Shown: positions 6,640-28,460 of the stretch, in pieces
How the letters are laid out: every line of letters starts with the position of its first letter
Numbering within the stretch: position 1 is the stretch's first letter
Source of the DNA: Candidatus Brocadiaceae bacterium
GTDB taxonomy: Bacteria; Planctomycetota; Brocadiia; Brocadiales; Brocadiaceae
Length of the DNA stretch: 32,000 nt
NCBI GenBank assembly: GCA_039794405.1
Contig: JBDIVL010000002.1
Coordinates: 39,403 to 71,402 of the forward strand
Direction: 5' to 3'
Translations under genes and position numbers: made by a program
The notes under the pieces: model-generated
What the model was told of the DNA's origin: nothing
Databases searched by the model: none
The model's input: the letters and a program-made list of their open reading frames with translations, nothing else

Positions 6640-6668
6640 AAATCTCTATGAATTTTGTTTTTCTACTG

Positions 6669-7211: not shown

Positions 7212-7233
7212 TTTCTTTCCCGACTGTACCGGT

Positions 7234-7261
7234 GTAGGGACACGGGGCGCCGTGTCCCTAC
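7234..7261. repeat. REP-like palindrome 22 nt upstream of the transposase-like start codon
   Basis: gtagggacacgg-ggcg-ccgtgtccctac has the same core GGGACACGG/CCGTGTCCC as 6911-6936. Confidence 0.7.
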
Positions 7262-7306
7262 ATTTGTTTATGTATTTATTCTTTGTGTATTCTTGTAATA
7301 ATTGTA

Positions 7307-8668: not shown

Positions 8669-8705
8669 TTTATCAGACTGGGGCTTTACTTTACTTCGCT
8701 AGATT

Positions 8706-10229: not shown

Positions 10230-10302
10230 TAGAACCTTTCATATATTCGATTATTTTCATACAAAATTTAAATAATTATGATATTGAAAATTACGGTATT
10301 AA

Positions 10303-12096: not shown

Positions 12097-12293
12097 AAAA
12101 AACTCCAAATCCAAATTCCAAACAAATTCCGTAACAATTCAGTTCACCGCAAGGGCACAAAGGACGCAAAGAAAAAACTTACGAATATCCGGCTTCTTAT
12201 AGTATTACTCCGTAAAAACTTCTTTTTGTAAGTTTTTACCTCCCCTTAGTCTCCTCTTTGTGAAGGAGAGAATCGGAAGGCCGTTATTGCTCT

Positions 12294-12340
12294 ACCACCC
12301 CTCTTTCCCCTCCTTCGCAAGGAGGGGAAAGAGGGGTGGT
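12294..12340 (-). terminator. Perfect 22-bp stem / 3-nt loop hairpin 31 nt downstream of the LptC/LptA-like gene
   Basis: accacccctctttcccctcctt (12294-12315) pairs perfectly with aaggaggggaaagaggggtggt (12319-12340). There is no U-tract on the minus strand; T-rich sequence follows on the plus strand. Confidence 0.45.
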
Positions 12341-12371
12341 TGTCTTTTGGTTGCGGTTTTGCTGCGATGTG

Positions 12372-14309
12372 CTATTTTTTACTATTCTGCAATTGCCAGT
12401 GCGGCCTGCCTTCCCATGTAACACGGTTCTCTGCCATATTAAAATATACCTTGTCAGAGAATGTCTTTGATCCCTCTTTCCGCAATTCTGCTTTTGGATT
12501 GCCTGTCATTATGGCTATATCCTGAACCAAATCCCAAATAAGAAATGAGCCGAACCCTTCACAACCATGTAAGACCTTACTAAAAAAATAGGTATTACCA
12601 GTTGCTATGATTTTACTTATTTTTTGGCTGTCATTCAGATACGCATCTATTTGATCACCATTCAACTTCTGTCCACCTCGCGTAGCCTGAACTTCTTCAA
12701 AAAAACTTACTTTTTTCAGGTCGTCATTATAGGTCATTCTCTTAGACCAATCGACTGTCACATCCGATTCTTCAACACCCTCTTCCCCTTTTTCATACAA
12801 ATTTCCTTTGCCTTCACAGAGGACGCTATTTCTGTCTTCATAGAAAAGTACTTTCGGTGAAAAAATCTGCCTTCTATTTCCTTCCCGCAAGATTGCAAAG
12901 GGGTGACCCCTCAAGGTGGTAACTTTATTTTTTGCATTCCAGGTAACCTGGTCCCCAACAGCTTCATTGTATAAACTGCCTTTCTTATCTATAATATGAA
13001 TTTTTTCTGTTGCCTTCATATTTTGCATACTGAAATCATTTTCATTAAATACCACATACAGGTTATCACAAGAAAGGGTAGAATTTCCCCTTCTGACTTC
13101 AATATTTTTTTCGAAGCTAGCCTCCCGCGTTCCATCCAGGAAATTCATTTTCCCTTCCCATTTCACGTTAATGTTTGTATCAGGTTTATCTGTCCTGGCT
13201 GTAGTATCTTTTTCCTTTGATTTTTCTCTGATCTTTGCCTTTAAGCTGCCGGAACTCGGGACATCTATCTTACCAGTATCTCTATAAAAGATCATCTTCA
13301 GTGCATCAATACTCAGCACATCATTAACAAATTCAGCCTTTTGGGCATCCTCCAGGATTGCACTTTGGGTGTTAACATCCCATGTTAAAAAACTTCCCTT
13401 GGCAATTTTTGTCCCCTGGGAGGCGAGTACATTTCCACTTGCAATGGCCTGCTCCGTTTTTTTTGTTTTCTGGTTAAGGAAGATGACTAGTTTATCTGAA
13501 TAAACAGTCGCACTGCCTCTTTTTGTCTGTACATTATCGTTAAAGGTCATAATATTTGCATCTGCACTTCTATCAAATACCAGTTGTCCACTCGATTGGA
13601 TATAGGTTTTCTCAAGAGGCATTTCTTTCGTGTCCGTTTCCTCTAAAGAAGCTGTATCATCAACATCGTCCTTGGAAAGGAAAAAGAGGTCGTTTTTGAC
13701 ACCATCCATTTCCATTTCAGCATTTTTTTTAATCCACATCTTTTTATTAGCAAGGTCTATCTCGCACCCTTGACCGGTAATTACTATACCCTGGCCATGT
13801 ATCGTAACAAAATCATCCGTGGATACCAGTTTTTTTTCAGGCAAGTATCTCATATAGTCTGTATTGAGTTTCGTTTCGAGGTCGAAATGGATAATTACAT
13901 TCTCAGAGAGATAACCCTCGTTCGTAACCCTATTCATCTCACCATTATCAGAAGTAATGAATACGGACTGCGTACCACTTTCAGTATTTGTAGTATCACG
14001 GACCTCAATTTCCGGAGTAATAATCTTATACATATCATTATCCAGAAGAATGGTATCCTTGCCACGCATGATTAAAAATTCTTCTCCTTTTTCATCATAG
14101 TTTGGAATAGAAAGATCTTGTACTGTTTGTGTTACTGTGCCCTGATTACTTTTATTATATACCGGATCATGAATAGCGGGATTTTCCTGAGCAGGATTCT
14201 CCTTCCGGCCCTTTGTATCCTTTCCTGGTTGAGATATAACAAGAGACACAATGATGGTGAGGATACAGGCAATAGGAGTACCAATAAATATATATCTTCG
14301 TTTTGTCAT
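12372..14309 (-). CDS. Membrane-anchored protein with LptC-like and repeated LptA/OstA-like beta-jellyroll segments (putative)
   Basis: There is a single N-terminal TM segment (IFIGTPIACILTIIVSLVI). It is followed by repeated beta-rich modules resembling LptC/LptA patterns (GNV..., TW/TF ... G ... repeats, for example ASGNVLASQGTKIAKGSFLTWDVNTQSAILED). The assignment is from pattern memory only. Confidence 0.45.
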   Translation of the reverse strand: MTKRRYIFIGTPIACILTIIVSLVISQPGKDTKGRKENPAQENPAIHDPVYNKSNQGTVTQTVQDLSIPNYDEKGEEFLIMRGKDTILLDNDMYKIITPEIEVRDTTNTESGTQSVFITSDNGEMNRVTNEGYLSENVIIHFDLETKLNTDYMRYLPEKKLVSTDDFVTIHGQGIVITGQGCEIDLANKKMWIKKNAEMEMDGVKNDLFFLSKDDVDDTASLEETDTKEMPLEKTYIQSSGQLVFDRSADANIMTFNDNVQTKRGSATVYSDKLVIFLNQKTKKTEQAIASGNVLASQGTKIAKGSFLTWDVNTQSAILEDAQKAEFVNDVLSIDALKMIFYRDTGKIDVPSSGSLKAKIREKSKEKDTTARTDKPDTNINVKWEGKMNFLDGTREASFEKNIEVRRGNSTLSCDNLYVVFNENDFSMQNMKATEKIHIIDKKGSLYNEAVGDQVTWNAKNKVTTLRGHPFAILREGNRRQIFSPKVLFYEDRNSVLCEGKGNLYEKGEEGVEESDVTVDWSKRMTYNDDLKKVSFFEEVQATRGGQKLNGDQIDAYLNDSQKISKIIATGNTYFFSKVLHGCEGFGSFLIWDLVQDIAIMTGNPKAELRKEGSKTFSDKVYFNMAENRVTWEGRPHWQLQNSKK

Positions 14310-14445
14310 AAGAGTTCGAAAAAGGGTTTTTTGTTCTCAGGGATTATTATCCATATTATATAAATTTCATACAACTATTAGCACGATATTTTTCCAAAAT
14401 TTCATTAGCCTTCTATAGATAACTTAAGTAGAAATGCCCAAAGTC

Positions 14446-14620
14446 GGTACAATCTTGTGGATTAAACCAAAATTTAGAATTGATTGATAAATTTTTGGTT
14501 GGTGTCGGCTTAGGAAAACGTGCCAACCATTTCGGTTCAATCGTGGACGATTGAACCAACCCTGAGAATACTCCTGGAGCCGGAATGACAATGCCTGTTT
14601 TCGGATAGACTCTTAAACCC
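14446..14620. repeat. Mosaic intergenic repeat cluster: one degenerate and one intact GGTTCAATC hairpin plus two shared modules
   Basis: Degenerate hairpin ggtacaatc-ttgtg-gattaaacc lies at 14446-14468. Intact hairpin ggttcaatc-gtggac-gattgaacc lies at 14534-14557. ccctgagaatactcctg (14560-14576) matches 27071-27087 at 16/17. ggaatgacaatgcctgttttcggataga (14582-14609) matches the reverse complement of 29558-29585 at 26/28. Confidence 0.65.
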
Positions 14621-14626
14621 CGTTTG

Positions 14627-17197
14627 CTATAAAACAGAGGATACTTCTGAAGTTTCAGGCGACAGATTCATAGTGTGAATATCTGTACGGCTTAAAGGCA
14701 GGCCAATATAAAAATCCGTTCCAACACCTTCTTTACTCTCTACGTAGAGAATCCCTTCGTGATCCTTTATGATTCTATACACTATCGCCAGTCCAAGTCC
14801 GGTACCTTTATCCTTATTCGTAAAGAACGGCTCAAAGATATGTGAAATATTCTCGGCAGGAATGCCTGCGCCCTTATCAGAGATTTTAATAATATAGTAG
14901 TGTTTATTATTCAATACATGAAATGAAAATGGGGCAAAGGAAAAGAAAACACAACAAGCGCTTGCCTTCGCCATTTTTCTAAATCCTAAAAGGTTATCTA
15001 TCAAATCCGTATTCACTTTAATGTACCCGCCTCCTGGCGATACATCAATACTATTTTGTAGAATATTTATCAGTACCTGCTTAATCTTATCTTCATCTGC
15101 AATAAGCCGGTACCCTCTTTCTTTTACATCTGCAGTTATCTCCACACCCTTCGTTCGTGCGGTGTTTTTGAATAAATTTACTACATCCATTATTACAGAA
15201 TAAGGGTCCATGTGTTGTAAGATAGGCTGAGAGGGTTTTGCCAAATTGAGCAGATCTTCAATAATTCTGTTAATCCTTTCTATTTCCTTTACAGCAACCT
15301 GCTGGAAGCCCGTGTGAAAGTCTTTATCATCCTTTTTGTATGGAAGCAGTTGAAAATAAGTGTTGATGGCCACAAGTGGATTTTTTATCTCATGGGCAAT
15401 ATTGGCTGCAAGGGTACCAAGATGGGCCAGGCGCTCGGAGTGCTGCTTTTCTGCCTGGAGTGATTTCAATTCTGTAAGGTCTGTCAGGATTATTAAGGAG
15501 CCAAGCCTCTTCCCGTCCTCTGTCTTGAGTTTGGTTGTTGTAACATCGCACGGAATCTTTTTCTCTCCTTCCTCAATAATAGTTTCGATATTATAATATT
15601 CTGTGTCACTTGTAAGGGTGTGCTTCAATATCTGGTACGTCTCTTTACCAAGCTTTTTCAGTATTATTTCGGTGGTATTTTCACCCTTCAGCCCAAGGAT
15701 TCTTTTCGCTTCATTATTCAGAAAGGTAACTTCTCCGTTATTATCCACAACGATAACCCCATTTTTTAAGCTCTGAAGAATATTATCCCTGAAAGTTTTA
15801 GCTTCCCTCAACCCTGAATAGAGACGGGCATTGTTGGCTGCCATGGCTAACTGGCCGGAAAACGCGAGAAACATTTGAATATCTTCCTGGGTAAATATCT
15901 TTTTATTAATCTTCCTTCCCAAAAGGATTATGCCAAAGAGATCATTCTCCTGAAATACAGGGATACAACTGTCTACATCGAGAGAAGCTAATTTATCTTC
16001 TAGTAAATAATCAAATTTGCTGTGAGTAAAACGGCTCAATTGGTCACGAGAGAGAACCGTTTTATTTTGACAAAGCCATGTAACTATCGGTTCTTGTTTG
16101 GAGAAGAACAGGTTATCTCCAGGTGTAAAATTTATCGCTGCTCTCAAATTATAGTGTTGGGTAACCACATCCTTAAGAAGAATGCATATCTTCTCCATAC
16201 CTATAGATTCGTTTAGATACTGGATGGCATGATGGAGAAGCCCGTCTAAATTGTGGATAGATGAGAACATCGTTGTAGAATCACTGAGAATTTTTGGGTG
16301 ACTATATTTCGTACGAAATATAGTCTTTTCAATAATGTGTTGAATTGACTCCCGGGCAGATACAAACGTTATAGCCATTACTATGGTAGAAACAATAGTG
16401 GTAATTGTATTTTTATACTCTGATCCAGGGAGTATACTGCTTAAGAATAGTACAACAGCAAAATAGATTGCACTAAGAGCAATGGATAGAACGACATAGA
16501 CGGTACTCCGTTTAATTATCAGACTGATATCCATAAGGTGATACTTTATGATAGTGTAAGCTACAGTTGCCGGGATAGGAATGGATACCAAGGGTACAAA
16601 CCTCTCAATCTGCCATATGTCTAATATTGGCAAAAGAAAGTTTGTAATAATTGCTATAAAGAAAAACAAGAAAACTCCCAAGAACATGTATTGAATTTGC
16701 AACCTTTTGATCCCATAATAACGCAGACTTTTTTTGTAAAGACCGTATAGTGAATAAATCATGCAGGGTATAAAATAAAGCCAAAAAATATGAAATAGAG
16801 GACCGTATTTGGCACGAGGAAACTGGTTCTCAAAAGAAACCGAATCAACAATGTAGGAAGAAAGGAACGATAGAATCGTACTTACCGTGAAGAAAAAGAT
16901 ACTTAAGTGCTTGTCAACGGATCGCTCTACTTTATCCGGGAAAATAGAGGAAAAAAAGAAAAACGAAGAGGGTATAAAAAGAGCTGCACAATAGACCAGC
17001 TTCAATCTGTAGGCAGCCGATGTAGGATCTGTAGTACAAACCACAAGAAAAATAAAAAATATCCATATAGACAAAACATGTGAAAAGATACAAAATCTTT
17101 TGTTAAGAATACTTACAGGCTCTCTTAAAAACACAAAGATTCCGAGTCCGGCAATTAACAGGCATATCAGAATATATACTATTTGAGTTGCAAGCAC
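14627..17197 (-). CDS. Membrane sensor histidine kinase (multi-TM N-terminus, GAF, PAS, HisKA, HATPase_c)
   Basis: About seven hydrophobic helices span the first ~290 aa. The H-box is AHEIKNPL and the ATPase motifs are DKGAGIP...FEPFFTNKDKGTGLGLAIV. The GTG start lies 11 nt after the upstream KS stop, with GAAGG 6 nt upstream. Confidence 0.85.
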   Translation of the reverse strand: MLATQIVYILICLLIAGLGIFVFLREPVSILNKRFCIFSHVLSIWIFFIFLVVCTTDPTSAAYRLKLVYCAALFIPSSFFFFSSIFPDKVERSVDKHLSIFFFTVSTILSFLSSYIVDSVSFENQFPRAKYGPLFHIFWLYFIPCMIYSLYGLYKKSLRYYGIKRLQIQYMFLGVFLFFFIAIITNFLLPILDIWQIERFVPLVSIPIPATVAYTIIKYHLMDISLIIKRSTVYVVLSIALSAIYFAVVLFLSSILPGSEYKNTITTIVSTIVMAITFVSARESIQHIIEKTIFRTKYSHPKILSDSTTMFSSIHNLDGLLHHAIQYLNESIGMEKICILLKDVVTQHYNLRAAINFTPGDNLFFSKQEPIVTWLCQNKTVLSRDQLSRFTHSKFDYLLEDKLASLDVDSCIPVFQENDLFGIILLGRKINKKIFTQEDIQMFLAFSGQLAMAANNARLYSGLREAKTFRDNILQSLKNGVIVVDNNGEVTFLNNEAKRILGLKGENTTEIILKKLGKETYQILKHTLTSDTEYYNIETIIEEGEKKIPCDVTTTKLKTEDGKRLGSLIILTDLTELKSLQAEKQHSERLAHLGTLAANIAHEIKNPLVAINTYFQLLPYKKDDKDFHTGFQQVAVKEIERINRIIEDLLNLAKPSQPILQHMDPYSVIMDVVNLFKNTARTKGVEITADVKERGYRLIADEDKIKQVLINILQNSIDVSPGGGYIKVNTDLIDNLLGFRKMAKASACCVFFSFAPFSFHVLNNKHYYIIKISDKGAGIPAENISHIFEPFFTNKDKGTGLGLAIVYRIIKDHEGILYVESKEGVGTDFYIGLPLSRTDIHTMNLSPETSEVSSVL

Positions 17198-17208: not shown

Positions 17209-18453
17209 TTATGGATAATTTCTTAATATAAGAACAGCATGTGTTCCCCCTACACTATGACTATTTATAAGCGCTGTATCCATGGAAAATCGCCTTGCAT
17301 GGTTCGGAACATAGTCAAGATCACATTGAGGATCGGGTACAGCCAAATTCATCGTAGGAGGGATGATCCCATTTTTTAGACTAAGGGACGTTGCCACTAC
17401 TTGAAAACCACCTCCTGCAGCAAATGATTGGCCTGTCATAGATTTGACAGAACTTACGGGGATCTTATATGCACGGCTACCAAAGAATGTTTTAAATGCA
17501 TTCGTTTCTGCCACATCATAGCTAGGAATAGCATTTCCGTGAGCACAGATATAATCTATCTCTTCCTTTCTCATTTTGCTATTGATTAGCGCCTGTTCTA
17601 ATCCAATAACTAATCCTGTTCCACTTATATCATTTTGAAAAATATCTTGTGCATCACATGAAGTGGCATAAGATACAATTTCAGCATAAACATCTGCCCC
17701 TCTTTGTAAGGCATGATTCAATTCTTCAAGTACTATTGATGCTGCACCTTCACTCAGTACCATACCATCGCGATTTTTATCGTAAGGTCTAGATGCTTTC
17801 TCAGGTTCATCGTTTCTCTGTGAAAGAATCCCCAAGGCACATAATGCAGACATAATAAAGGGAAAAATAGGTGTGTCCGCACTCCCCACAATTGCTACAT
17901 CTACATCTCCTTGTTTTATCATCCTATAACCCCAATTTACAACTTCGAGCCCGGTTGAACATCCCGATGATAGCGTGGAATTAGGCCCGTTAATTTTTAG
18001 TTCCGAACAAATATAGCCTGTTGTTGCATGCGGTGTAAGTTCTGGAGCAGTAATACGGCTTACTGCCTGAGGTCCTGAATTGAAATATTTTCCGTACTGT
18101 ACTTCATATAAATCATTATCGGCCCCTAATGTAGTTCCAAAACACACGCCGCACCTATCTCTATTTTCCCTACTCAGATCAATATTAGAATCTGCAACCG
18201 CCATCTTTGATGCTGCAATACCAAAGGGGGTAAATCTTGCACTTCTTTTTACTATTTTCGGGTCAACATAATCACAAGGATCAAAGTCTCTTATCTCTCC
18301 CGCAATTCTTGTGCTAAGAGCAGATGGATCAAAGGATGTGATCCTCGATATGCCTGAACGTCCATTAATCAACGCATCCCAGTACGCATCTTTTCCAATA
18401 CCATTGGGTGCTAAGATTCCCAAACCAGTAATGACAACACGCCTTGTTACCAT
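17209..18453 (-). CDS. FabF-fold beta-ketoacyl-ACP synthase paralogue with Cys-His-Gln in place of Cys-His-His
   Basis: RRVVITGLGILAPNG; active-site Cys in GPNSTLSSGCSTG; first His in CAHGNAIPSYD. The KSMTGH motif reads KSMTGQSFAAGG, and NSFGFGG reads NSHSVGG. Confidence 0.85.
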   Translation of the reverse strand: MVTRRVVITGLGILAPNGIGKDAYWDALINGRSGISRITSFDPSALSTRIAGEIRDFDPCDYVDPKIVKRSARFTPFGIAASKMAVADSNIDLSRENRDRCGVCFGTTLGADNDLYEVQYGKYFNSGPQAVSRITAPELTPHATTGYICSELKINGPNSTLSSGCSTGLEVVNWGYRMIKQGDVDVAIVGSADTPIFPFIMSALCALGILSQRNDEPEKASRPYDKNRDGMVLSEGAASIVLEELNHALQRGADVYAEIVSYATSCDAQDIFQNDISGTGLVIGLEQALINSKMRKEEIDYICAHGNAIPSYDVAETNAFKTFFGSRAYKIPVSSVKSMTGQSFAAGGGFQVVATSLSLKNGIIPPTMNLAVPDPQCDLDYVPNHARRFSMDTALINSHSVGGTHAVLILRNYP

Positions 18454-18468: not shown

Positions 18469-20274
18469 TTAAAGAGTATCTTTATTTATTGAAGGAAAAT
18501 TTCTCTCTGCTATCCTTCTGCTATAGTCATTTATCCTTTGATAAACATCCCGAAGAAAGCTGTAGTCCGTAGTTAGTAAGGCTAAATCGCTTCTCATTTT
18601 AAACTCTTCCAATCCTTCTTGGCCTAAAAACCCGGCACTTCTTGCCGCAAGGCAGTGCTCATCTGAAACATTTACGGTATAACCCATTTCTCTAACTTTT
18701 CTCTCCATCAGACCGGCCATCTTTAACATATCCAAGTACTGCATCCCCTGTAAGGAAATATTTAGTTCAGGCCATGTACTTGGGTCCTTCGTAAGCTCAT
18801 ACTCATAGCGCAAAAATGTTTGGACATAATCACCAGGTAAGTCGAAACCATATCGATAAGGTTCTAATTGCCAGGATGTAGCAGGCAACGGTGTACCCGG
18901 AGTTATAAGAACAGAATCAGGCTTATAGTTTTCACCTTTTAGTCCCTGAAGGAAACATAAATTCTCTTCCAAGACTTGCTCATACGTTATGCCACTACCG
19001 TGAGGCAGCGGGCAAGGATAAATAAAACTTACACCCACATCAAGATGTTTCTTTTGATTGTAAGATGCCTGCTTCATGGCCTTAATCGTAAAATACATAT
19101 CCTCCATGCAATTACCTTTATGGATAACCTTTGAGAGTATCTCGTCATTAGCAACTTCAACACCCATGAAAACAGCCTTGAGTCCAGAACGTATTATTGA
19201 CTCGTAAACCTTAACCAACTCATCCATCCGCTCTTTTGCCCTGTTCTCTGCCCGGATAAACATTGAATATTCAATAATCAAACCCTCCTTTAATAATGCT
19301 TCGGCAATGCGCCTGCCCAGAGAAACAGGTGTTACGGAACCTGCAAATCTAAAGAGCCCGATACCCGTCTCATAAATTGTTTTCTTTATTTCATTGAGGG
19401 TTATATCAACATCTCGCGCTTGATATTTTCCCGTAATGTTTGGATGCGTACAAAAATTACACTTCCCGTAGTAACATCCCGAAGACTCGTTTATAACCGC
19501 TATGTTTACCTTCCCGTCATCCTTCTCATATAAGGGAAAAAGTTTTGAGTTTAACGGAACTCTTTGAATAGACGTCTCTTTCACTTTGCCACTACCATCC
19601 CTATATATCAAATTAAAGATCTCACCGGCTTCGGCAAGGGCAGTAATTCTTTTTATTACCTCAGGTTTTGCATATCCTTTAGAATACGACTCCCTTACTA
19701 TGTTCATGATCTTTGCCAAGGTTATCTCACCCTCAACATCTATACAAAAATCAAATGGGCTTTTCTCCAATGCATGTACCTTGAATTGGTTAACCTGCGG
19801 TCCACCGGCAATCACTAAAGTATTCGGGCTTGTTTTCTGAACTTTCCCGGCAAGCTTCTCTGCGTATGAAAACCTGTGGCCAAGCCATGTCTTGATTCCA
19901 AGCACTTTTACCTGATTTTCACATATTTTTTGAACCAGATCATCAATATACTTTTCCATTCTCCCTTTTAAAATCTCTGTGAGATTATCTTGAAGCGCAT
20001 CCCATTCCATCCTCAAAGAGGATGGAGCATCTCCTTTTCTTTCACGAAAAATTTGCTCAGAGAGTTCTGATAATCTTGGTGTGAGATTATTTCTTGTAAA
20101 TGATGTGTAAAATTCGATTCTTGCAGGATCTTCGATGGTAATGTTAAATCCAGCTTCTTTACATGTCCTGGCCAATGTTCCAATACCATTTTCTTTAAAA
20201 CAATCACTAACGGAATAGGCCTTTCCCATAAACGAATTCCAGAGCATAAGATCTATGCCATACAAATTATTCAT
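18469..20274 (-). CDS. B12-binding-domain (class B-like) radical SAM enzyme
   Basis: The N-terminal half is Rossmann-like (VLGIKTW...LVIAGGPQVN). The cluster motif GCYYGKCNFCTH lies at 19450-19476. The start was moved to the ATG at 20274, with GGAG 6 nt upstream. The product is 601 aa. Confidence 0.8.
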   Translation of the reverse strand: MNNLYGIDLMLWNSFMGKAYSVSDCFKENGIGTLARTCKEAGFNITIEDPARIEFYTSFTRNNLTPRLSELSEQIFRERKGDAPSSLRMEWDALQDNLTEILKGRMEKYIDDLVQKICENQVKVLGIKTWLGHRFSYAEKLAGKVQKTSPNTLVIAGGPQVNQFKVHALEKSPFDFCIDVEGEITLAKIMNIVRESYSKGYAKPEVIKRITALAEAGEIFNLIYRDGSGKVKETSIQRVPLNSKLFPLYEKDDGKVNIAVINESSGCYYGKCNFCTHPNITGKYQARDVDITLNEIKKTIYETGIGLFRFAGSVTPVSLGRRIAEALLKEGLIIEYSMFIRAENRAKERMDELVKVYESIIRSGLKAVFMGVEVANDEILSKVIHKGNCMEDMYFTIKAMKQASYNQKKHLDVGVSFIYPCPLPHGSGITYEQVLEENLCFLQGLKGENYKPDSVLITPGTPLPATSWQLEPYRYGFDLPGDYVQTFLRYEYELTKDPSTWPELNISLQGMQYLDMLKMAGLMERKVREMGYTVNVSDEHCLAARSAGFLGQEGLEEFKMRSDLALLTTDYSFLRDVYQRINDYSRRIAERNFPSINKDTL

Positions 20275-20435
20275 AGAAAACTCCGCAAAAATCAAAGTTA
20301 CACAAAAGGCATCTCCTTTTAGTTTTTTCTAACCCAAGTTCCCATCATATGTTTCCTAGCCCGGCAAAGCTGCAACTCAAATCCTTAATTCGAGTAATGG
20401 GGTATTGTTGTGAAAGAAACGCCAATATTCTGTCA

Positions 20436-20699
20436 CTAAACAGATTTCTTATCAATTTTTTGTTTTACCAGATTAGCCATCCCTTGTATGGTTAAATTCC
20501 TACTTGCTTCTTCATTAGAAATCTCTACATTAAACTCCGTTTCAATACTATATAATAAATTTATCATCTCGGCAGATTCTATACCGATATCATCAACGAT
20601 ATGTGAACTGATGGTAATATCCTCAGCATCCATCCTGAGTTCTCTTGATATGATTTTTTTAAGCCTTTCTACAATCAAATCTTCTGTAAGATTTTGCAT
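20436..20699 (-). CDS. Dedicated acyl carrier protein
   Basis: The protein is 87 aa, acidic, with a four-helix pattern. The phosphopantetheine-site region is DDIGIESAEMINLLYSIETEF, where the canonical form is D-S-L. Confidence 0.8.
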   Translation of the reverse strand: MQNLTEDLIVERLKKIISRELRMDAEDITISSHIVDDIGIESAEMINLLYSIETEFNVEISNEEASRNLTIQGMANLVKQKIDKKSV

Positions 20700-20732: not shown

Positions 20733-21974
20733 TTAAAAAACTTTCTTAATCACGATAGTTGAATTATTGCCACCAAAACCAAAAGAGTTTGACATGGCAG
20801 CATTGATTTCCTTCTTTCTGGCTTTATTGGGTACATAGTCCAAATCGCATTCAGTATCTGCATTTTCTAAATTAATCGTAGGAGGGATTATGCTATTTTC
20901 CATAGCCAAGATACATGTTATAAGTTCTACTGCACCGGCAGCACCTATCAAATGTCCTGTCATTGACTTTGTTGAGCTTATCGGTATTTTATATGCATTG
21001 TCTCCAAAAACCGTTTTTATTGCTTTTGTCTCTCCACTATCATTTGCCAATGTTGATGTCCCATGTGCATTAATATAATCAATATCTTGAATATCCAGGT
21101 CGGCGTCTCCTATTGCCAAACGCATTGACTTGCATATCTGTATCCTGTCCTTTGAAGGCATGGTCATATGAAAGGCGTCACTGGTAGCTCCATAACCAGC
21201 TATCTCAGCATAGATATGCACACCTCTTTTTCTGGCATTTTCTTCCCTTTCTAGAATCAAAATGCCGGCACCCTCTCCCATTACAAATCCGTCCCTTTCC
21301 CTGTCAAAAGGCCTGCTCGCCTTTTCAGGCTGGTCATTTCTTTTTGACATAATTCTCAAGGAACAGAAAGCCGCAAGATTAAGCGGAAAAATGGGTGCCT
21401 CAACCCCGCCGGTTAAAACAAAATCAGCTTGGCCCGATTTGATTATATTTCTGGCAATTCCAATAGCTTGATTACCACTTGAACATGCCGTTGCACCAAC
21501 TAAACTTTGACCTGGAAGATTGAAAAAACCCGAGATTACATTTGAGGCATTTCTATTATCTTTAGGAGGCTTAGTCCGTAGGGTATAATTGTTTTTCTCT
21601 ATTGCGGTTTTTTCATCATAATATAATAAAGTTTCAATTCCTACCCCAATCAATACTCCAACCCTGTTTCTATCTATCCGAGAAAAATCCAGACCAGCAT
21701 CCTTTACTGCCATTTGAGCCGCTGCCAGGCCAAATTGTGAACACCTGCTCAAATTATTCGCCAACTCCTCGTGCATGTATTCTCCAGGGTTAAAATCCTT
21801 TACTTCTCCGGCAATTTTCGTAGGATAAGCTTCTGTATCAAACCTTGAGATACTTGATATCCCCGATTTGCCACTCATGGAAGACTTCCAGAATGAATCT
21901 ACTCCAATTCCAATTGGCGTAATAACTCCTATTCCGGTTACTACAACCCTATTCTTTTCCATTCGGTCGTTCAT
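20733..21974 (-). CDS. fabF: Canonical beta-ketoacyl-ACP synthase II (FabF type)
   Basis: All catalytic signatures are present: GATACSSGNQ, NAHGTSTLANDSGE, SSTKSMTGHLIGAAGAVE, NSFGFGGNN. The start is ambiguous (ATGs at 22016, 21992, 21974, 21962). Choosing 21974 gives 413 aa with MNDRMEKNRVVVTG. Confidence 0.85.
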   Translation of the reverse strand: MNDRMEKNRVVVTGIGVITPIGIGVDSFWKSSMSGKSGISSISRFDTEAYPTKIAGEVKDFNPGEYMHEELANNLSRCSQFGLAAAQMAVKDAGLDFSRIDRNRVGVLIGVGIETLLYYDEKTAIEKNNYTLRTKPPKDNRNASNVISGFFNLPGQSLVGATACSSGNQAIGIARNIIKSGQADFVLTGGVEAPIFPLNLAAFCSLRIMSKRNDQPEKASRPFDRERDGFVMGEGAGILILEREENARKRGVHIYAEIAGYGATSDAFHMTMPSKDRIQICKSMRLAIGDADLDIQDIDYINAHGTSTLANDSGETKAIKTVFGDNAYKIPISSTKSMTGHLIGAAGAVELITCILAMENSIIPPTINLENADTECDLDYVPNKARKKEINAAMSNSFGFGGNNSTIVIKKVF

Positions 21975-22102
21975 TTTAGATGAAACCCTCATTTGTTTAT
22001 TCGTTAATTCCACCATATCGCATACAATGAACAAAAGGAAAGTATATTTTTTAGCACCGCGTATATACTTTTTCGTGAATAGTCACTATTCCACCACTAC
22101 TG

Positions 22103-23332
22103 TCAAAAACGTTGAAAAACGAATGATACATTATTACCGGCATAATCGAAGTTATTTGAAAGCACGATATTAATGGGTCGGAAATCAGACCTTTTAAGAA
22201 TGGAAATTGATGTGCACTTTGGATCGATATTCTCAAGGTTGTTTGTTTGGGGTAAAATATGTTTTCTCAGGGATAACAATGAGAAAATTATGTTAATCGG
22301 ACCGGAAGCACCTATAGAGAATCCCAAACTACCTTTTGTTGAACTTACAGGGGTTTTCCGGTCATTATCACCTAAAATGGATTTTATTGCTTCTGCTTCC
22401 TCTACGTCTTCCCTTATCCCGGATATGCCACTCGCATGAACATAATCAACACTTACAGGATCAAGAGATGCAGAGGACAACGCCTGTTTTATACAAGAAA
22501 CCTTAGAATAGAAATTTGTATTTTTCTGGTTTTCAGAATTGTTATGACAATAAGAGGTTCCAAATCCAATGATCTCGCCATAAATACTGGCACCCCTTTT
22601 TTCTGCGCTCTGAAGTGTTTCCAGGACAACGATACCAGCCCCTTCACTCAGGATAAAGCCTTTTCTTGCAATATCAAAAGGACAGCTAGCCCGATTTGCA
22701 TCAGCACTATTTGGTTGAAATAAACCTTTAGGTCCTAATTCCTCAAAAACTCTTGGTAACAATGGTGCCTCAGTTCCACCCGCAACTATTGCATCGATAT
22801 TATGGCGTTGCAGTGTATTAAATGCCTGAATGATACTGTAATCCCCTGAACACCCACCACATGAAAATCCAACGTTAGGACCTTTAAGGTTTAATTCTAT
22901 TGCAACCTCACCTGACGGAGCATTTGCAAGATTATTTTGCATTAAGAGCGGATGAACCCTTCTCGGACCTTCAAGGTAAAGCACCTGAAGTTGTTTTTCG
23001 ATACTATAGAGTCCACTATAAGCACTGCCAATGAAAACACCAATTTTTTCCCTATCAAACTCTTCACCAATTTTTGCATCAGCTAATGCCATCTTCGCGG
23101 CAGCCAGGGCAAAACTCGCAAAACGATCGACTTTATCTTTTTTCGTTTCAGGAACGTATGTTTCGAGTTCCGGGCCGGATACTCTGCCAGCATATGTTCT
23201 TATATTAGCACCTTCTATCTCAAATTCCTTTATTCCCGATATACCAGACAGATATCTTTCCCAGTTTTCATGTATACCAACACCCAGCGGACTAACAATA
23301 CCAACGCCAGTAACTACTATTCGCTTTTTCAT
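22103..23332 (-). CDS. KS-fold protein lacking the canonical catalytic residues (chain-length-factor-like partner)
   Basis: The KS fold is clear (KKRIVVTGVGIVSPLG, SEGAGIVVLE). In an ungapped register, GPNVGFSCGGCSG places Gly at the catalytic Cys position of FabF GPSISIATACTSG. AHGTST reads HASGIS (His to Ser) and KSMTGH reads KGSLGF (His to Phe). Confidence 0.75.
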   Translation of the reverse strand: MKKRIVVTGVGIVSPLGVGIHENWERYLSGISGIKEFEIEGANIRTYAGRVSGPELETYVPETKKDKVDRFASFALAAAKMALADAKIGEEFDREKIGVFIGSAYSGLYSIEKQLQVLYLEGPRRVHPLLMQNNLANAPSGEVAIELNLKGPNVGFSCGGCSGDYSIIQAFNTLQRHNIDAIVAGGTEAPLLPRVFEELGPKGLFQPNSADANRASCPFDIARKGFILSEGAGIVVLETLQSAEKRGASIYGEIIGFGTSYCHNNSENQKNTNFYSKVSCIKQALSSASLDPVSVDYVHASGISGIREDVEEAEAIKSILGDNDRKTPVSSTKGSLGFSIGASGPINIIFSLLSLRKHILPQTNNLENIDPKCTSISILKRSDFRPINIVLSNNFDYAGNNVSFVFQRF

Positions 23333-23390
23333 GAGTCAGCCACTTTATTTCTCTTGCAAATTGTTCAAAATAAGACTTAAGAGTTTCTAT

Positions 23391-25529
23391 CTAAATGTAG
23401 TCTTTAAGAAAATCTGAAATAGGTAAAAAGACATAAACCTTACTACCTTTTCCCTCCTTAGAAGAGATATAGATAAATCCTTCATGTTCTTCAATTATTC
23501 TCTTGGATATTGAAAGTCCAAGTCCGATATTATGCGGCTTTGTTGTAAAGAAAGGAAGGAAGATGTTTTTGAGTTCATCCCGGGGAATACCGGCGCCCGT
23601 ATCCTGGATTATTACTTCAACGTACTTCAATGGTAACCCTTTCAACGCACTAGTACCATTGTATCTGCTATGAGACCCGCCATTATTGAGAAAACTATGT
23701 GATCCGGCAAGCCTCTTCTCATCCAGTAAGACATGTGAAATCTCAGCAGTCAATGTCCCGCCATCGGGCATAGCCTCTACTGCATTAAGCACCAGGTTTG
23801 CCAATACCTCTTCCAATTTTTCACAATCCCCTTGTATGGCTGCGGTTTCTTCCGCATACTTTTTCAGTAACTTGATATTGGATTCTGCCATCCTATCCCT
23901 ATAGGAGTCCAGCACCTGATCTAAGAGAAGCCTGATATCTGCTTTTCTTCTCATAAGATCTCTATTTTCTCCCAAAGTTGTCAGCTTTTTTGTCATAAGG
24001 TCGAGATTACTTACCTCTCTCCGCGCCACATGAGAAAATTGTTCCATAAACTCTTTATCTTCTATTTTTTCAGGGAACAAATCCATAAAGGTCTTAACAG
24101 CAACCAGGTGGTTTTTAACGTAATGGGCCATATTATTACTCAGCATGCTGAAGAACGCCTTTTTCTCGAGATCTTTTACCTTTAACTCCAGTTTCTTAAT
24201 CTCGTTTAAATCGGATAATACCATAATCGCGCCAAGTTCCCTGTCGGCATCTACCAGCAAGGATGTACTAACAGCATACGTAGAATGGGTTACCGGATCA
24301 CGAATCTCGCTCATCCTATAAGTTTTTTTATCTTTCAAGGTCCTCAAAATAACATCGGCAAAAACAGAACCGATATGTTTGACATCCTTCCCCAGCACTT
24401 CATGCGAGGGAATATGTAACATTTTTGAGGCGCTTTGATTAAAAGTATTAACCTTACCGTCACTATTTATAGCAATCACACCACAGGGAATATTTTCTAA
24501 GACGTTCTCATTATGAACCTTCCTGACATTTATTTCCTGGTAAAGAAATGCGTTCTCCACCGCCATACCTATATATCCTGCCAGCATAGATAACAATTCA
24601 ATATCTTCATCAAAATAGGCCTTTCCCGTAATCTTGTTTCCTAAGGCAATCACACTAATAATGTTCCCCTTAGCGAAGATCGGTATACACAGTTGTGCCT
24701 GCAAAAGGTTCATCTCTCTCTGTATCCTGATAGCCTCACGCCCGGTTAATCTTTCCGAAGCGATTTCTCTATCGATAACGTCCTTACTTAATATCTGATG
24801 GTTCCTGGTTAGCCATGACATAATACCATGCTCGTTTAAGAAGCAAATATCCCGAAATGCCCTTTCGTCTAAGCCAAGACAGCGATAAGGTCTGCTTATC
24901 CCTTCCTCCCTGTTTATCAATATGAACACTACCCTTCCAACCCTAAATATCTCAGCCAATGCCTCAACAGTAAGATCAACAAGCTTCTCAAGATTATATA
25001 CATGTGTTAACGCCTTCGAGAATTTCTGAAACACTTCCTTGTAGGTAAGGCGGATATCACCAGACCTCATTTGTTTATGAGAGGTCAATTCATCCGATAA
25101 TCCATTCTCTTTACTCATCGGCTTTAAATTTTTTACCTGCAATTGAGTAAAATTCAACACTCGTTTTAATTCCTGCCTTTCTAAAGCCCTTTCTAAAGCC
25201 TGTTGTATCATCTCCTTTTTCAGAGGTTTTTCAAGAAGTTCATAAGGTCTTACTCTTAAGGCTTCTTCAGATAATACTGGCTGGGCTGCAGGAACTATTG
25301 CAATAATCGTTGGATCAATTTCTATTTGCCGAAGATTCTCGATGAGTTTATTAGCCCCGTCGTCACGTAAAATAACATCCAGGAAAGCCACATCAATGTC
25401 TTTTCTAAGGAATATCTGTAATGCTTCTTCGGATGTTTTTGCGGTGTGAATTATACAGTCTCTGTTAAGAGACCTTTTGAGGAAGTTGTGAATGGAATTA
25501 TCATTTGAGATCACCAGAAATGAATGCAT
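23391..25529 (-). CDS. Hybrid sensor kinase: N-terminal receiver, GAF, PAS, HisKA, HATPase_c
   Basis: Receiver features are FLVISND...DVAFLDV. The H-box-like motif is MAHYVKNHL and the ATPase motifs are DTGAGIP...FLPFFTTKPHNIGLGLSISKRII. The start was moved to the ATG at 25529, preceded on the minus strand by G8 and a 7-nt spacer. Confidence 0.85.
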   Translation of the reverse strand: MHSFLVISNDNSIHNFLKRSLNRDCIIHTAKTSEEALQIFLRKDIDVAFLDVILRDDGANKLIENLRQIEIDPTIIAIVPAAQPVLSEEALRVRPYELLEKPLKKEMIQQALERALERQELKRVLNFTQLQVKNLKPMSKENGLSDELTSHKQMRSGDIRLTYKEVFQKFSKALTHVYNLEKLVDLTVEALAEIFRVGRVVFILINREEGISRPYRCLGLDERAFRDICFLNEHGIMSWLTRNHQILSKDVIDREIASERLTGREAIRIQREMNLLQAQLCIPIFAKGNIISVIALGNKITGKAYFDEDIELLSMLAGYIGMAVENAFLYQEINVRKVHNENVLENIPCGVIAINSDGKVNTFNQSASKMLHIPSHEVLGKDVKHIGSVFADVILRTLKDKKTYRMSEIRDPVTHSTYAVSTSLLVDADRELGAIMVLSDLNEIKKLELKVKDLEKKAFFSMLSNNMAHYVKNHLVAVKTFMDLFPEKIEDKEFMEQFSHVARREVSNLDLMTKKLTTLGENRDLMRRKADIRLLLDQVLDSYRDRMAESNIKLLKKYAEETAAIQGDCEKLEEVLANLVLNAVEAMPDGGTLTAEISHVLLDEKRLAGSHSFLNNGGSHSRYNGTSALKGLPLKYVEVIIQDTGAGIPRDELKNIFLPFFTTKPHNIGLGLSISKRIIEEHEGFIYISSKEGKGSKVYVFLPISDFLKDYI

Positions 25530-25952
25530 TGGCAGACCCCCCCCTCTTCCCAATTACCTGTAAAAGTATTTGTACTTATTACAATAGGCAGATGAAATGA
25601 ATGATGTCTGAGTAAAAAATGGTATAGATTTATAGAGTATGATACCCAGAATGTCCACCATTGTCAATAACGAGTGTTTTATATAAGTTAAATAACCTCA
25701 AAATAAAATATCATAGAGCATTGCAAAACTTCCCGAAAAACAGAGAGCTTCTAAAGCCTACAACAGTGACATTCTGTTTTTATAAGACTATAGTTTACTG
25801 AAAAATTAAATTTTTATTGTTTTTATCGTCAAAATATATTACTTTTTTAGGGCTTTTCCAAATAATTTTTTCACCTTTTATCAGGTAGAATAAAATCATT
25901 GTATGAGATTGGCATTAAAAATCTGAATTCATAATTGGAGGAACTACTATAT
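25530..25952. promoter_or_regulatory. AT-rich divergent control region between the kinase/KS operon and the HD-GYP/FadL operon
   Basis: This 423-bp spacer separates divergently oriented genes and has no credible ORF. Individual promoter hexamers could not be assigned with confidence. Confidence 0.4.
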
Positions 25953-26984
25953 ATGGAACAAAAAATTACATCATCAAACATATTAGTAGTGGATGATGAT
26001 CTCGGCGTAAGAGAATCATTAAAAATGATCCTAAAAGACAGGTATTTTATTTCTACTGCATCAAATGTTGATGAAGCCGCCAATGCCTTGAAAGAAATTA
26101 GCCCATTAACAATCTTCCTGGATATAAGAATGCCCAAATCGAATGGGCTTGATTTTCTTAAAAGGATGCAATCTACTAACCCTTCGATTCCAATAATTAT
26201 CATTACGGCATTTCCTTCTTCACAAACTGCAATAACGGCATTGAGAAATGGTGCCTTTGATTATATCGTGAAACCCTTTGAGCCATCAGAAATACTTGAA
26301 ACAGTAGAAAGGGCTTCGCAGCATTATGCTGAATTATCGGAAAAAGACCGGCTTATCTATAACCTGAGAAAGGCCGTTCACAAAAATTTCTTTTCAACGA
26401 CAGAAGCACTCTTGCTCGCAATAGATGCAAAAGACTCATACACTGCAGGTCATTCGAAAAGGGTATCTCAACTGTTTTCCTTTGTTGCAAAAGACCTCGG
26501 CATGAGCCAATCGAAAATTGAAGTCTTTCAATATGGAGCATTTCTCCATGATATCGGGAAAATAGGTATCAGCGATAATGTACTAACAAAGCCAGGTATC
26601 CTTACCGACGAAGAATTCCTTTTTATAAAGCGCCATCCTGAAATTGGCTATAAAATTCTTGAACCTATCAATTTTTTAAAAGAATGTTTATTAATCGTTC
26701 GTCATCACCATGAATGGTATAACGGTACTGGTTATCCAGATGGACTCAAAGGAACAGAAATTCCTCACGAGGCTACTATCCTTTCTATCGTAGACGCCTA
26801 CGATGCGTTAACCACTGATAGGCATTATCGCAAAAAATATACCCACCCAAATGCACTTGCGATTATTACAGAAAGAATACATACTCAATTTACACCAACC
26901 TTGACGGAGAAGGTTCTTACTTCCATTAACACATATCATAGAATTAATACGAGTGATGAACCATTTGAAGAGTTTTCAAAATGA
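25953..26984 (+). CDS. Response regulator with HD-GYP output domain (RpfG-like c-di-GMP phosphodiesterase)
   Basis: Receiver features are ILVVDDD...FLDIRMP...K. HD is LHDIGKIG and the HD-GYP signature is HHHEWYNGTGYPDGL. The start was moved to the ATG at 25953, with GGAGG at 25937-25941. Confidence 0.85.
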   Translation: MEQKITSSNILVVDDDLGVRESLKMILKDRYFISTASNVDEAANALKEISPLTIFLDIRMPKSNGLDFLKRMQSTNPSIPIIIITAFPSSQTAITALRNGAFDYIVKPFEPSEILETVERASQHYAELSEKDRLIYNLRKAVHKNFFSTTEALLLAIDAKDSYTAGHSKRVSQLFSFVAKDLGMSQSKIEVFQYGAFLHDIGKIGISDNVLTKPGILTDEEFLFIKRHPEIGYKILEPINFLKECLLIVRHHHEWYNGTGYPDGLKGTEIPHEATILSIVDAYDALTTDRHYRKKYTHPNALAIITERIHTQFTPTLTEKVLTSINTYHRINTSDEPFEEFSK

Positions 26985-27104: not shown

Positions 27105-28460
27105 ATGTTCAGGTACTTAAATAATATTTGTATACAGGTGCTTACGATAAAACGACCGCTCGTATTTTGTATTTTTACTCTTACTCTCCTTTCATCCTTT
27201 TTTGAAAGAGCAAATGTATTTGCACAAATAGCATCAGGATTGCATAACCCCGCCCTGGGGGCTTCAGCGCTCGCTCAAGGAAACGCCTTTGCAGCCCGTG
27301 CGAATGATACATCTGCCATAGCATTTAACCCGGCCGGACTTATGCAACTTGAGAGACCGGAGATCTCCTCAGGTGCCAGCGTCCTCTTCTCATCAGTAGA
27401 ATATCACAATACCAATATTGATGAAGAAATGGAGGCAATAAATGTTGTTCCGAATATGTATTTTGCAAGTCCAATTATTGAAAACAAACTATCTGCAGGT
27501 ATCGGAATAATCGCCCCTTATGGCCTCGATGGTGAATGGGATGATGACGGATTCTCCAGATTTGTAGTTACAGATTTTAGTTTAAGAATTATTAATATAA
27601 ATCCAACTCTAGCCTTCAAACCATTTTCTTTCCTCTCTTTCGGTGCAGGGTTTAACTATTATTATGCAGATGTTGAACTAGGAAAACATATGAATACAGG
27701 TTTAGTTAATTCAGTCTTAACCGGTTCCATCCTGGATAATAGCACTCCTGAGGGAATCCAGGACCTTGATATGCATGGAGATGCTTTTGGATATAATGCT
27801 GGTATGCTCTGTAATATTACTCCACGTCATAGTATTGGGGTTTCATTTCGAAGCAAGGCAGATATAGATTTTGAAGGTAAGTTGAGACTCTCCAACCTGA
27901 GCGGCGCAGCCGCATCGTTATTTGGTTCCCATACCTTTGTTTCAAAAACTTCCACAACTGTTACAATACCGGAAATGCTCTCATTTGGTTATGCATATAA
28001 ACACGGAAGTCTCTGGAGTATAGAAGCAGATGTTCAGTGGACAAACTGGTCCCGGTTCGATATCCTCAAATCCCATTTCAGACCAACAAATCCCTTGTTA
28101 GAGGCAAATAAGGAGGATATTCGAAAATGGCATAACACCCTGGGGTTTGCTCTTGGTGGTGAATATAAGTTCAATGAAGCTATAAAAATACGAGGTGGCT
28201 ATGCCTTTCATGAGTCTCCGGTTCCAGGCGAAACCTTTGAACCCTCGGTCCCTCAAAGTAGCAGGCATGCGTTATTTACAGGATTCGGATATAGTTGGGG
28301 AAAAAATTTAAACAAATGGATAGATTTTGCTTATGGAATTGTATTCTACGAAAACAGAAAAATAGATAATTCTGTAGGGGATTCCGTACAAGGTCCTATT
28401 GATGGACATTACGACCTTATTACACATATCGCAGCTATAAATTTTAATTACAGGTTTTAA
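27105..28460 (+). CDS. Outer-membrane hydrophobic-compound/long-chain fatty acid channel (FadL/OMPP1/TodX family)
   Basis: A signal peptide is present. The family motif is AIAFNPAGLMQL, the sequence has alternating beta-strand character, and the C-terminus is INFNYRF with a terminal Phe. Confidence 0.75.
   Translation: MFRYLNNICIQVLTIKRPLVFCIFTLTLLSSFFERANVFAQIASGLHNPALGASALAQGNAFAARANDTSAIAFNPAGLMQLERPEISSGASVLFSSVEYHNTNIDEEMEAINVVPNMYFASPIIENKLSAGIGIIAPYGLDGEWDDDGFSRFVVTDFSLRIININPTLAFKPFSFLSFGAGFNYYYADVELGKHMNTGLVNSVLTGSILDNSTPEGIQDLDMHGDAFGYNAGMLCNITPRHSIGVSFRSKADIDFEGKLRLSNLSGAAASLFGSHTFVSKTSTTVTIPEMLSFGYAYKHGSLWSIEADVQWTNWSRFDILKSHFRPTNPLLEANKEDIRKWHNTLGFALGGEYKFNEAIKIRGGYAFHESPVPGETFEPSVPQSSRHALFTGFGYSWGKNLNKWIDFAYGIVFYENRKIDNSVGDSVQGPIDGHYDLITHIAAINFNYRF

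Follow-up and report, generated by a model that had tools for sequence, protein, structure and literature searches.

A predicted class B-type radical SAM enzyme with a CX4CX2C cluster loop in a ketosynthase and sensor-kinase gene run of an anammox bacterium

The radical SAM gene and its cluster-binding loop

The stretch of DNA analysed in this study (32,000 nucleotides of contig JBDIVL010000002.1 of Candidatus Brocadiaceae bacterium, hereafter the window) carries at positions 18469..20274 of its minus strand a gene for a putative class B-type radical S-adenosylmethionine (SAM) enzyme of 601 amino acids (aa), read from an ATG at position 20274. The longest reading of the open reading frame (ORF) starts at a TTG at position 20295 and encodes 608 aa (18469..20295, minus strand); the ATG is likely the preferred start, because a GGAG motif lies 6 nt upstream of it and a database entry of the same sequence (P0001) has 601 residues. 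The protein is composed of a Rossmann-type domain at its N-terminus, the radical SAM barrel, and a conserved helical domain at its C-terminus, and its conservation within the clade extends over the whole length. In the numbering of the 608-aa ORF, the core of the Rossmann-like (cobalamin-binding-type) domain covers residues 115-195 (19711..19953, minus strand; Pfam B12-binding, PF02310; 33.4 bits against a cutoff of 32.1), and the partial-barrel core of the radical SAM domain covers residues 272-413 (19057..19482, minus strand; Pfam Radical_SAM, PF04055). The latter match falls just under its cutoff (27.4 bits against 29.5), which is exceeded by the relatives P0091 and P0107; the superfamily assignment of the window protein therefore rests on the cysteine triad, the profile match to OxsB, and the predicted fold, all described below. 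The Rossmann domain is kept at full length throughout the family (22-sequence alignment), and its combination with the radical SAM core supports a class B-like architecture, as the first-pass annotation had supposed when it placed a Rossmann-like half before the cluster motif.

The same annotation had named a single plausible ligand triad, and codon mapping and a regular-expression scan bear this out: the pattern C-x(2-7)-C-xx-C has one site in the whole protein, C267-YYGK-C272-NF-C275 (19450..19476, minus strand; residue numbers follow the 601-aa protein), a CX4CX2C loop for a predicted [4Fe-4S]/SAM cluster. The spacing recurs at the aligned position in all 98 homologues found at E ≤ 1e-3 among 5.8 billion proteins, including sequences of 33-37% identity from other phyla; the loop reads CYYGKCNFC in anammox bacteria and C-x-W/Y-G/N-K-C-x-F-C in those more distant sequences. 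Across the 22-sequence alignment, which reaches down to 33% identity, 58 columns including the triad are invariant, and the alignment has no invariant cysteine beyond these three that would hint at an auxiliary cluster. When 1.84 billion cluster representatives were searched with a profile, 215 clusters were obtained at E ≤ 1e-30, of which the best ~35 are of the CX4 type (two CX5) and the next group is a sister family of 540-560 aa with the canonical CX3CX2C loop. A neighbor-joining tree, built from 125 sequences of the family and its sisters, places the window protein in a clade of 32 leaves (30 CX4, 1 CX5, and 1 without a match in the motif scan), outside which CX3 is found in 85 sequences. 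An indel or a sequencing artefact as the origin of the CX4 spacing is ruled out by this conservation and by the tree. Because CX4 is kept in every homologue and clusters in the tree, the CX4CX2C loop, one residue longer than the canonical one, is a clade-defining trait.

Variant cysteine spacings of radical SAM enzymes, CX4CX2C among them, are catalogued in RadicalSAM.org. The first-pass annotation had singled out the enzyme as a candidate for unusual chemistry on an acyl chain. Such chemistry is plausible, but the spacing by itself is no sign of it, because OxsB offers a precedent and CX3CX2C sister enzymes occupy the same module of radical SAM, ketosynthase (KS), and kinase genes in other phyla; ladderane ring formation in particular is made unlikely by the distribution described below.

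Predicted fold and nearest characterized enzymes

An AlphaFold2 model was calculated from the 22-sequence alignment with a predicted local distance difference test (pLDDT) score of 92.2 and a predicted template modelling (pTM) score of 0.90. In a Foldseek comparison with the PDB, the model matched OxsB first (E = 2e-16), followed by TsrM (3e-15) and AprD4 (5e-12), and the probability of 1.00 to OxsB, TsrM, AprD4, PylB, HydE, and LipA indicates that the modelled protein has the partial (β/α)6 barrel fold. A sequence-profile search of PDB chains also placed OxsB at the top (E = 1.8e-10, aligned to OxsB residues 151-457), with the family motif GC-x-YGKC-x-FC aligned to GCDYSRCTFC of OxsB.

A check suggested in the first-pass annotation, that for membership in a radical SAM family of known function, found none. 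No NCBIfam model came near its cutoff, the best being PhpK (58.5 bits against 600) and BchE (56.9 against 481); rSAM_ocin_1 reached 47.2 bits against 282, and all curated class B equivalogs (PhpK, BchE, HpnR, HpnJ, the C-methyltransferase of ribosomally synthesized and post-translationally modified peptides, and others) stayed below cutoff for the window protein. TIGR04072 (rSAM_ladder_B12, lipid biosynthesis B12-binding/radical SAM protein) gave 55.2 bits, below its cutoff of 360. The window protein is best described, from its sequence relationships, as a putative member of an unnamed and uncharacterized clade of class B-type radical SAM enzymes that crosses phyla.

AprD4 has a B12-like domain that does not bind cobalamin, and class B enzymes are not known to share a universal cobalamin-ligand motif. 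The Rossmann domain of the window protein might likewise lack cobalamin, in which case only 5'-deoxyadenosyl radical chemistry would take place, such as the dehydration, desaturation, or epimerization of a hydroxy- or keto-acyl intermediate. The rank of AprD4 among the top structural matches would agree with this, as would the score for the Pfam B12-binding domain, which is barely over the threshold, and the presence of the family in DPANN archaea and Patescibacteria, whose reduced genomes make them unlikely B12 makers. The best matches, OxsB and TsrM, are, however, true cobalamin enzymes, and a Rossmann domain is retained at full length across the family; we consider the cobalamin-free enzyme improbable.

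Organization of the locus

The radical SAM gene is the fifth in a minus-strand series of seven genes, spaced 11-161 bp apart, which encode a hybrid kinase, an inactive KS, a canonical KS, an acyl carrier protein (ACP), the radical SAM enzyme, a KS with a Cys-His-Gln (C-H-Q) triad, and a seven-transmembrane (7TM) kinase. At the head of the run is a receiver-GAF-PAS-HATPase hybrid sensor kinase (23391..25553; Pfam). The inactive KS homologue (22103..23332; Pfam KS domains) resembles a chain-length factor and has Gly, Ser, and Phe in place of the catalytic Cys, His, and His; the triad is replaced by A/G-S-F in all 10 orthologues. The next gene encodes a canonical FabF-type KS with a Cys-His-His (C-H-H) triad (20733..22034; TIGR03150 fabF, 522.6 bits against a cutoff of 493.75), whose start codon is uncertain, the orthologues being 414-427 aa long. 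The ACP of 87 aa (20436..20699; Pfam PP-binding) has Ser42 in the motif DIGIES, and its gene ends 161 bp upstream of the radical SAM gene, which is thus flanked by KS genes with an ACP at hand, in agreement with the context that the first-pass annotation had described.

On the other side, 15 bp 3' of the radical SAM gene, lies the gene for the KS with the C-H-Q triad (17209..18453; Pfam KS N and C domains). This protein lacks the Cys-His-His triad of the FabF type and scores below the TIGR03150 cutoff (417.6 bits against 493.75), and it passes that of the subfamily NF005589 (400.4 bits against 387). A HisKA_7TM-GAF-PAS-HisKA-HATPase sensor kinase (14627..17197; Pfam) follows 11 bp 3' of it. 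Two divergent genes on the plus strand encode a response regulator with an HD-GYP domain (25935..26984; HHEWYNGTGYP; Pfam Response_reg and HD_5) and a FadL/TodX-type outer-membrane transporter for hydrophobic compounds (27105..28460; Pfam Toluene_X, 242 bits). Rfam models at the gathering threshold matched nowhere in the window, B12 and SAM riboswitches included, and the counts obtained from a scan for sigma-70 promoters and terminators were at chance level.

Comparison with other anammox loci

Other loci were collected by scanning a single genome for each GTDB species, with our own ORF calls and with labels assigned by blastp to a few references. Homologues at 65-94% identity come, where named, from Brocadia, Jettenia, Wunengus, Loosdrechtia, and Kuenenia metagenome-assembled genomes (MAGs), which marks the host as a member of the anammox order Brocadiales. 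The core order in anammox bacteria is radical SAM enzyme, C-H-Q KS, and 7TM kinase, with the KS present in 22 and the kinase in 23 of the 27 loci; upstream of this core lies a hybrid kinase, often accompanied by a sigma-54 activator. The trio of inactive KS, KS, and ACP is limited to the window and ten other anammox loci and is absent from most, its share being about 10 of 27; an ACP orthologue is present wherever the KS pair is (10/10 loci). The triad of the partner KS is C-H-Q in 61 of its 73 orthologues and C-H-H in the other 12. The hybrid kinase is syntenic in anammox loci, as is the FadL transporter, which is also syntenic in the locus L086. The constant partners of the radical SAM gene in anammox bacteria are the downstream C-H-Q KS and the 7TM kinase, and the trio is optional.

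The loci with the trio also differ in what precedes it. A sigma-54 activator stands between the hybrid kinase and the inactive KS in seven of them (L011, L015, L016, L026, L028, L030, and L034); in the window, these two genes are 58 bp apart (23332-23391) without an intervening activator.

Kuenenia stuttgartiensis and Scalindua are ladderane producers. When the radical SAM enzyme, the C-H-Q KS, and the 7TM kinase were used as queries, matches came from Brocadia, Jettenia, Wunengus, Loosdrechtia, 'Kuenenia hertensis', and Anammoxibacter, and no protein named K. stuttgartiensis or Scalindua was among them in either of the two databases. The module is apparently absent from these two organisms, a negative result on which all three genes and both databases agree. 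The literature was also searched for 10-methylhexadecanoic acid in Kuenenia, so as to set the idea of mid-chain methylation against the gene distribution, and nothing was returned.

The kuste2802-2805 cluster of K. stuttgartiensis, in which a radical SAM gene stands beside FabF-like genes, one of them non-canonical, was considered as the counterpart of the window locus and was ruled out by the gene sequences in Table S2 of Javidpour et al., where kuste2803 begins MKKLVLINPHPMG and kuste2802 is a true AcpS. A blastp comparison of the window enzyme with the published N-terminal fragments (~130 aa) of kuste2803, kuste3608, and kuste3342 gave no match, and the published N-terminus of kuste3343, compared by eye, shows no resemblance. 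Judged from these sequences, the window enzyme is orthologous to none of the four. The three KS proteins and the ACP of the window likewise have no orthologue among the candidate genes of K. stuttgartiensis (Clusters I-IV): the best KS match in that set is the housekeeping FabF (47%), and the ACP has no match to amxACP and shares only 28% identity with the housekeeping ACP. The eight KS genes that were counted in K. stuttgartiensis by Rattray et al. all lie at other loci.

Occurrence and gene neighbors outside anammox bacteria

In the same species scan, the CX4 family is found in more than 10 phyla, including Thermodesulfobacteriota, Kiritimatiellae, Omnitrophota, Latescibacterota, Gemmatimonadales, SAR324, KSB1, Glassbacteria, Patescibacteria, and DPANN archaea as well as the cultured Sporomusa acidovorans DSM 3132. 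Its neighbors there are enzymes of acyl metabolism: the gene of an acyl-AMP ligase immediately precedes it, that of a FeeM-type N-acyl-amino-acid synthase immediately follows or precedes it, and an acyl-AMP ligase, FeeM, or PlsC is located within three genes in 24 of the 37 non-anammox loci. Fusions join FeeM to the radical SAM enzyme (P0110 and P0122, in one form with a cyclic nucleotide monophosphate (cNMP)-binding domain between them), and the radical SAM enzyme to a PlsC acyltransferase (P0091) or a class I methyltransferase (P0107). Patatin and a palmitoyl thioesterase occur in DPANN loci, and exporters (MacB/FtsX, LolA-like, DUF1302, MMPL) at others. A recurrent block consists of a histidine kinase, a response regulator, an RR-HD_5 protein, and the radical SAM enzyme, followed by FeeM or a methyltransferase; in Latescibacterota, Gemmatimonadales, and others, the gene immediately preceding that of the family member encodes the RR-HD_5 protein, which resembles the HD-GYP regulator of the window. 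PilZ and cNMP-binding domains adjoin the FeeM partner or are fused with it.

Members of the C-H-Q KS subfamily are found outside anammox bacteria too, at 47-55% identity and with the C-H-Q triad in 43 of 47 sequences. In a Poribacteria MAG and on two other contigs, it forms a sister module with a CX3CX2C sister radical SAM enzyme (27-29% identity with the window protein), a second B12 radical SAM enzyme that is HpnR-like (252-258 bits to HpnR), and a HisKA_7TM kinase; one of these contigs additionally carries a sigma-54 activator and FadL. On a fourth non-anammox contig, the C-H-Q KS is beside a hybrid kinase and an exporter.

Several of the surveyed contigs show further features. The Kiritimatiellae MAG CSSed165cm_27R1 contains at least five CX4CX2C paralogues on separate contigs (L041, L042, L043, L047, and L072), which suggests a lineage-specific expansion, and a second Kiritimatiellae MAG, CSSed165cm_338, has one more member (L056). 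A non-anammox MAG (L004; GCA_041643075.1) has at 500-16400 a dense lipid cluster with PlsX, two PilZ proteins, a receiver, PlsC, FeeM, a 426-aa B12 radical SAM enzyme, an AMP ligase, a radical SAM-PlsC fusion, another PlsC, a second radical SAM enzyme of the family, and an AMP-ligase-PlsC fusion. The first genes of the Poribacteria-type contigs L085 and L088 are GvpL_GvpF gas-vesicle genes, a few kb from the sister module.

These neighborhoods bear on a possible lipid-signal circuit, in which the radical SAM enzyme and the KS (FeeM elsewhere) would make an acyl autoinducer that the 7TM and hybrid kinases would sense and relay to the HD-GYP protein (cyclic di-GMP) and to sigma-54. Kinases or response regulators lie within three genes in 26 of 27 anammox and 14 of 37 other loci, which are raw counts taken without a background rate, and the C-H-Q KS outside anammox bacteria is next to a sensor kinase in all four loci examined. 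The RR-HD_5 protein directly upstream in several phyla, the PilZ and cNMP-binding domains at the FeeM partner, the nearby exporters and FadL, and the fold that FeeM shares with LuxI-type synthases all point in the same direction. On the other hand, the regulators may merely control a membrane-lipid operon, the PlsC fusions and the patatin and thioesterase contexts of DPANN archaea point to bulk lipid remodelling, and the acyl signal molecule is hypothetical. We regard the circuit as unlikely, though the strongest competitor of the function proposed below. The broader claim that the pair of radical SAM enzyme and C-H-Q KS, together with the FeeM-linked relatives, are synthases of a new class of radical SAM-modified acyl signals in more than 10 phyla, anammox bacteria and DPANN archaea included, appears slightly less likely still.

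The distribution bears on a possible role in ladderane synthesis, in which the enzyme, with the KS pair, the ACP, and the second KS, would close the four-membered cyclobutane rings on a short ACP-bound enoyl intermediate during chain growth. Such a role would suit an anammox host, the neighbors that resemble fatty acid synthase (FAS) genes, and the dedicated ACP, and OxsB, the nearest solved relative, is a non-methylating enzyme whose reaction yields a four-membered ring. Radical SAM enzymes are, moreover, the preferred candidates for closing the rings, and a model in which such an enzyme acts 'stepwise' together with elongation has already been proposed by analogy with Jaw5. An essential role in ring formation is, however, argued against by the presence of the module in phyla without known ladderanes (S. 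acidovorans and DPANN archaea being examples for the family), by its apparent absence from K. stuttgartiensis and Scalindua, for which neither the radical SAM enzyme nor the KS nor the kinase was found, and by the CX3 sister enzyme in equivalent modules. The window enzyme is also none of the candidates of Clusters I-IV, and the KS pair and ACP are missing at most anammox loci. We therefore judge a cyclobutane-forming role to be very improbable.

Proposed function

On balance, the sequence evidence leans towards a functional class B-type radical SAM enzyme that modifies a fatty-acyl chain in a regulated accessory lipid module and is not a core ladderane cyclase. An activated fatty-acyl chain is taken as the substrate class because KS, ACP, FeeM, PlsC, the acyl-AMP ligase, and the thioesterases have in common an acyl group activated as a thioester or adenylate. 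The first-pass annotation had proposed acyl-ACP on account of the adjacent ACP gene; an acyl thioester is plausible in view of the ligase, FeeM, and PlsC partners elsewhere, but the ACP is not a conserved partner.

In the proposed mechanism, C267, C272, and C275 would hold the [4Fe-4S] cluster and SAM would be cleaved to the 5'-deoxyadenosyl radical, which would take a hydrogen off an unactivated carbon of the thioester-activated fatty-acyl chain. Cobalamin in the Rossmann domain would then lead to a new C-C bond, methylation being the commonest outcome of the class and an OxsB-like rearrangement or cyclization an alternative. In anammox bacteria, the linked downstream C-H-Q KS would carry the modified chain into elongation. 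In the window genome and about ten others, the dedicated pair of KS and inactive KS together with the ACP would probably supply an ACP-bound primer, as suggested by its resemblance to amxFabFmut/amxFabF2, which decarboxylate malonyl-ACP. The product would most likely be a speciality lipid that is made under certain conditions, whether an acyl chain for membrane remodelling or a lipid signal, and not the constitutive ladderane core, since the gene run is embedded in sensor kinases, HD-GYP, FadL, and, in other genomes, a sigma-54 activator. The wiring to kinases, HD-GYP, PilZ/cNMP-binding domains, exporters, and FadL fits membrane-lipid remodelling and a lipid-signal circuit alike.

Several points weigh against the proposed function. 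We infer substrate, product, and cobalamin dependence for every family member, and AprD4 shows that cobalamin binding does not follow from the presence of a B12-like domain. The context labels of the survey under- or mis-label some genes, and the absence from K. stuttgartiensis and Scalindua comes from negative searches of large databases in which only some entries are named. A Pfam scan of the cluster found no ketoreductase, dehydratase, or enoylreductase gene, which would leave a modified chain without obvious processing enzymes at the locus. Finally, no match to the sigma-54 promoter consensus (TGGCAC-N5-TTGCA, at least 9 of 11 positions, with GG and GC required) was found upstream of the radical SAM gene and the inactive KS gene in 37 anammox loci.

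For radical SAM enzymology, the analysis defines an uncharacterized OxsB-like clade, which comprises hundreds of sequences (~30 clusters at 50% identity), has an invariable CX4CX2C loop, and is clearly linked to fatty-acyl metabolism. For anammox biology, the window contains a fifth FAS-like locus that is unconsidered in the ladderane literature, as the model organism seems to lack it; given its distribution, a ladderane role should not be assumed for it. The conserved connection of KS and radical SAM genes with 7TM kinases in different phyla speaks for lipid remodelling under regulatory control or for lipid signalling.

Other genes in the window

Two genes concern tetrapyrroles. At 29785-31008 (minus strand), a radical SAM/SPASM protein matches TIGR04546 (AhbC, 12,18-didecarboxysiroheme deacetylase) at 739.9 bits against a cutoff of 650, which indicates the alternative siroheme-dependent haem pathway and is unrelated to the radical SAM locus described above; the same window encodes at 8706-10229 (minus strand) a TP_methylase and uroporphyrinogen-III synthase (HemD) fusion of 507 aa. 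The ORF of a 614-aa multihaem cytochrome (1318-3162, plus strand; Multi-haem_cyto, 279 bits) overlaps an NAD-dependent epimerase-like gene (717-1604, plus strand) by 287 bp, and the true start of the cytochrome is probably further downstream. At 5746-7211 (minus strand), a urea transporter (PF03253, 240 bits) adjoins a 180-aa ORF with a weak partial match to an IS200-like Y1 transposase (25.4 bits). Two proteins whose domain architectures are unusual for lipid or lipopolysaccharide handling are encoded at 10303-14309 (minus strand): one of 603 aa has a glycerophosphodiester phosphodiesterase domain and many HEAT repeats, and the next, of 645 aa, has LptC and repeated LptA/OstA domains.

Comparison with known systems

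The combination of acyl enzymes with a hybrid or multi-transmembrane kinase and an HD-GYP response regulator resembles the diffusible signal factor (DSF; RpfB/RpfC/RpfF/RpfG) and cholera autoinducer 1 (CAI-1; CqsA/CqsS) systems. RpfF is a crotonase and CqsA a pyridoxal phosphate enzyme, and the synthase genes of these systems have no homology to the window genes, for which, unlike in DSF and CAI-1, a signal is hypothetical. Jaw5 of the iterative polyketide synthase pathway to jawsamycin offers a parallel in that a radical SAM enzyme and KS elongation put carbocycles on a growing thioester-bound acyl chain; Jaw5 is, however, HemN-like and cobalamin-independent, and the resemblance is one of logic only. 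The hopanoid methylases HpnR and HpnP are class B enzymes that alkylate unactivated lipid carbons, as is presumed for the window protein, which nevertheless scores 25 bits against the HpnR cutoff of 650, and their hopanoid substrate differs from the presumed fatty-acyl thioester.

Within anammox bacteria, Kuste2803, Kuste3608, and TIGR04072 represent the same kind of protein, a B12-domain radical SAM enzyme beside FabF-like genes that has been proposed to modify acyl chains. The N-termini of Kuste2803 and Kuste3608 are without detectable similarity to the window enzyme, and K. stuttgartiensis has these two proteins and apparently not the latter. Cluster I, with amxFabF2/amxFabFmut and amxACP, shares with the window an inactive KS encoded just upstream of an active one and a dedicated ACP nearby. 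The amxFabF2/amxFabFmut heterodimer of Cluster I decarboxylates malonyl-ACP to start synthesis. With 30-39% identity over the N-terminal ~130 aa, the two pairs are paralogues and not orthologues. The dead triads also differ: the window type has G/A-S-F, and in amxFabFmut the Cys is replaced by Val or Thr and the two His residues by Asn, Glu, or Cys.

The nearest solved enzyme is OxsB of oxetanocin A biosynthesis (PDB 5UL2, 5UL3, and 5UL4), whose partner is OxsA. OxsB acts on a nucleotide, whereas the window protein is surrounded by KS, ACP, and kinase genes; at 744 aa, it is ~140 residues longer than the 601-aa window protein, and the identity over the Foldseek alignment is 15-16%. The window protein thus appears to be a remote homologue of OxsB that lies outside the OxsB family. 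A published review sets OxsB apart from other radical SAM structures by its CX4CX2C loop and states that it catalyses no methyl transfer. Both proteins combine a Rossmann cobalamin-type domain with a radical SAM barrel, and the loop of OxsB, the sole solved class B enzyme with such a loop, aligns residue for residue with that of the window protein.

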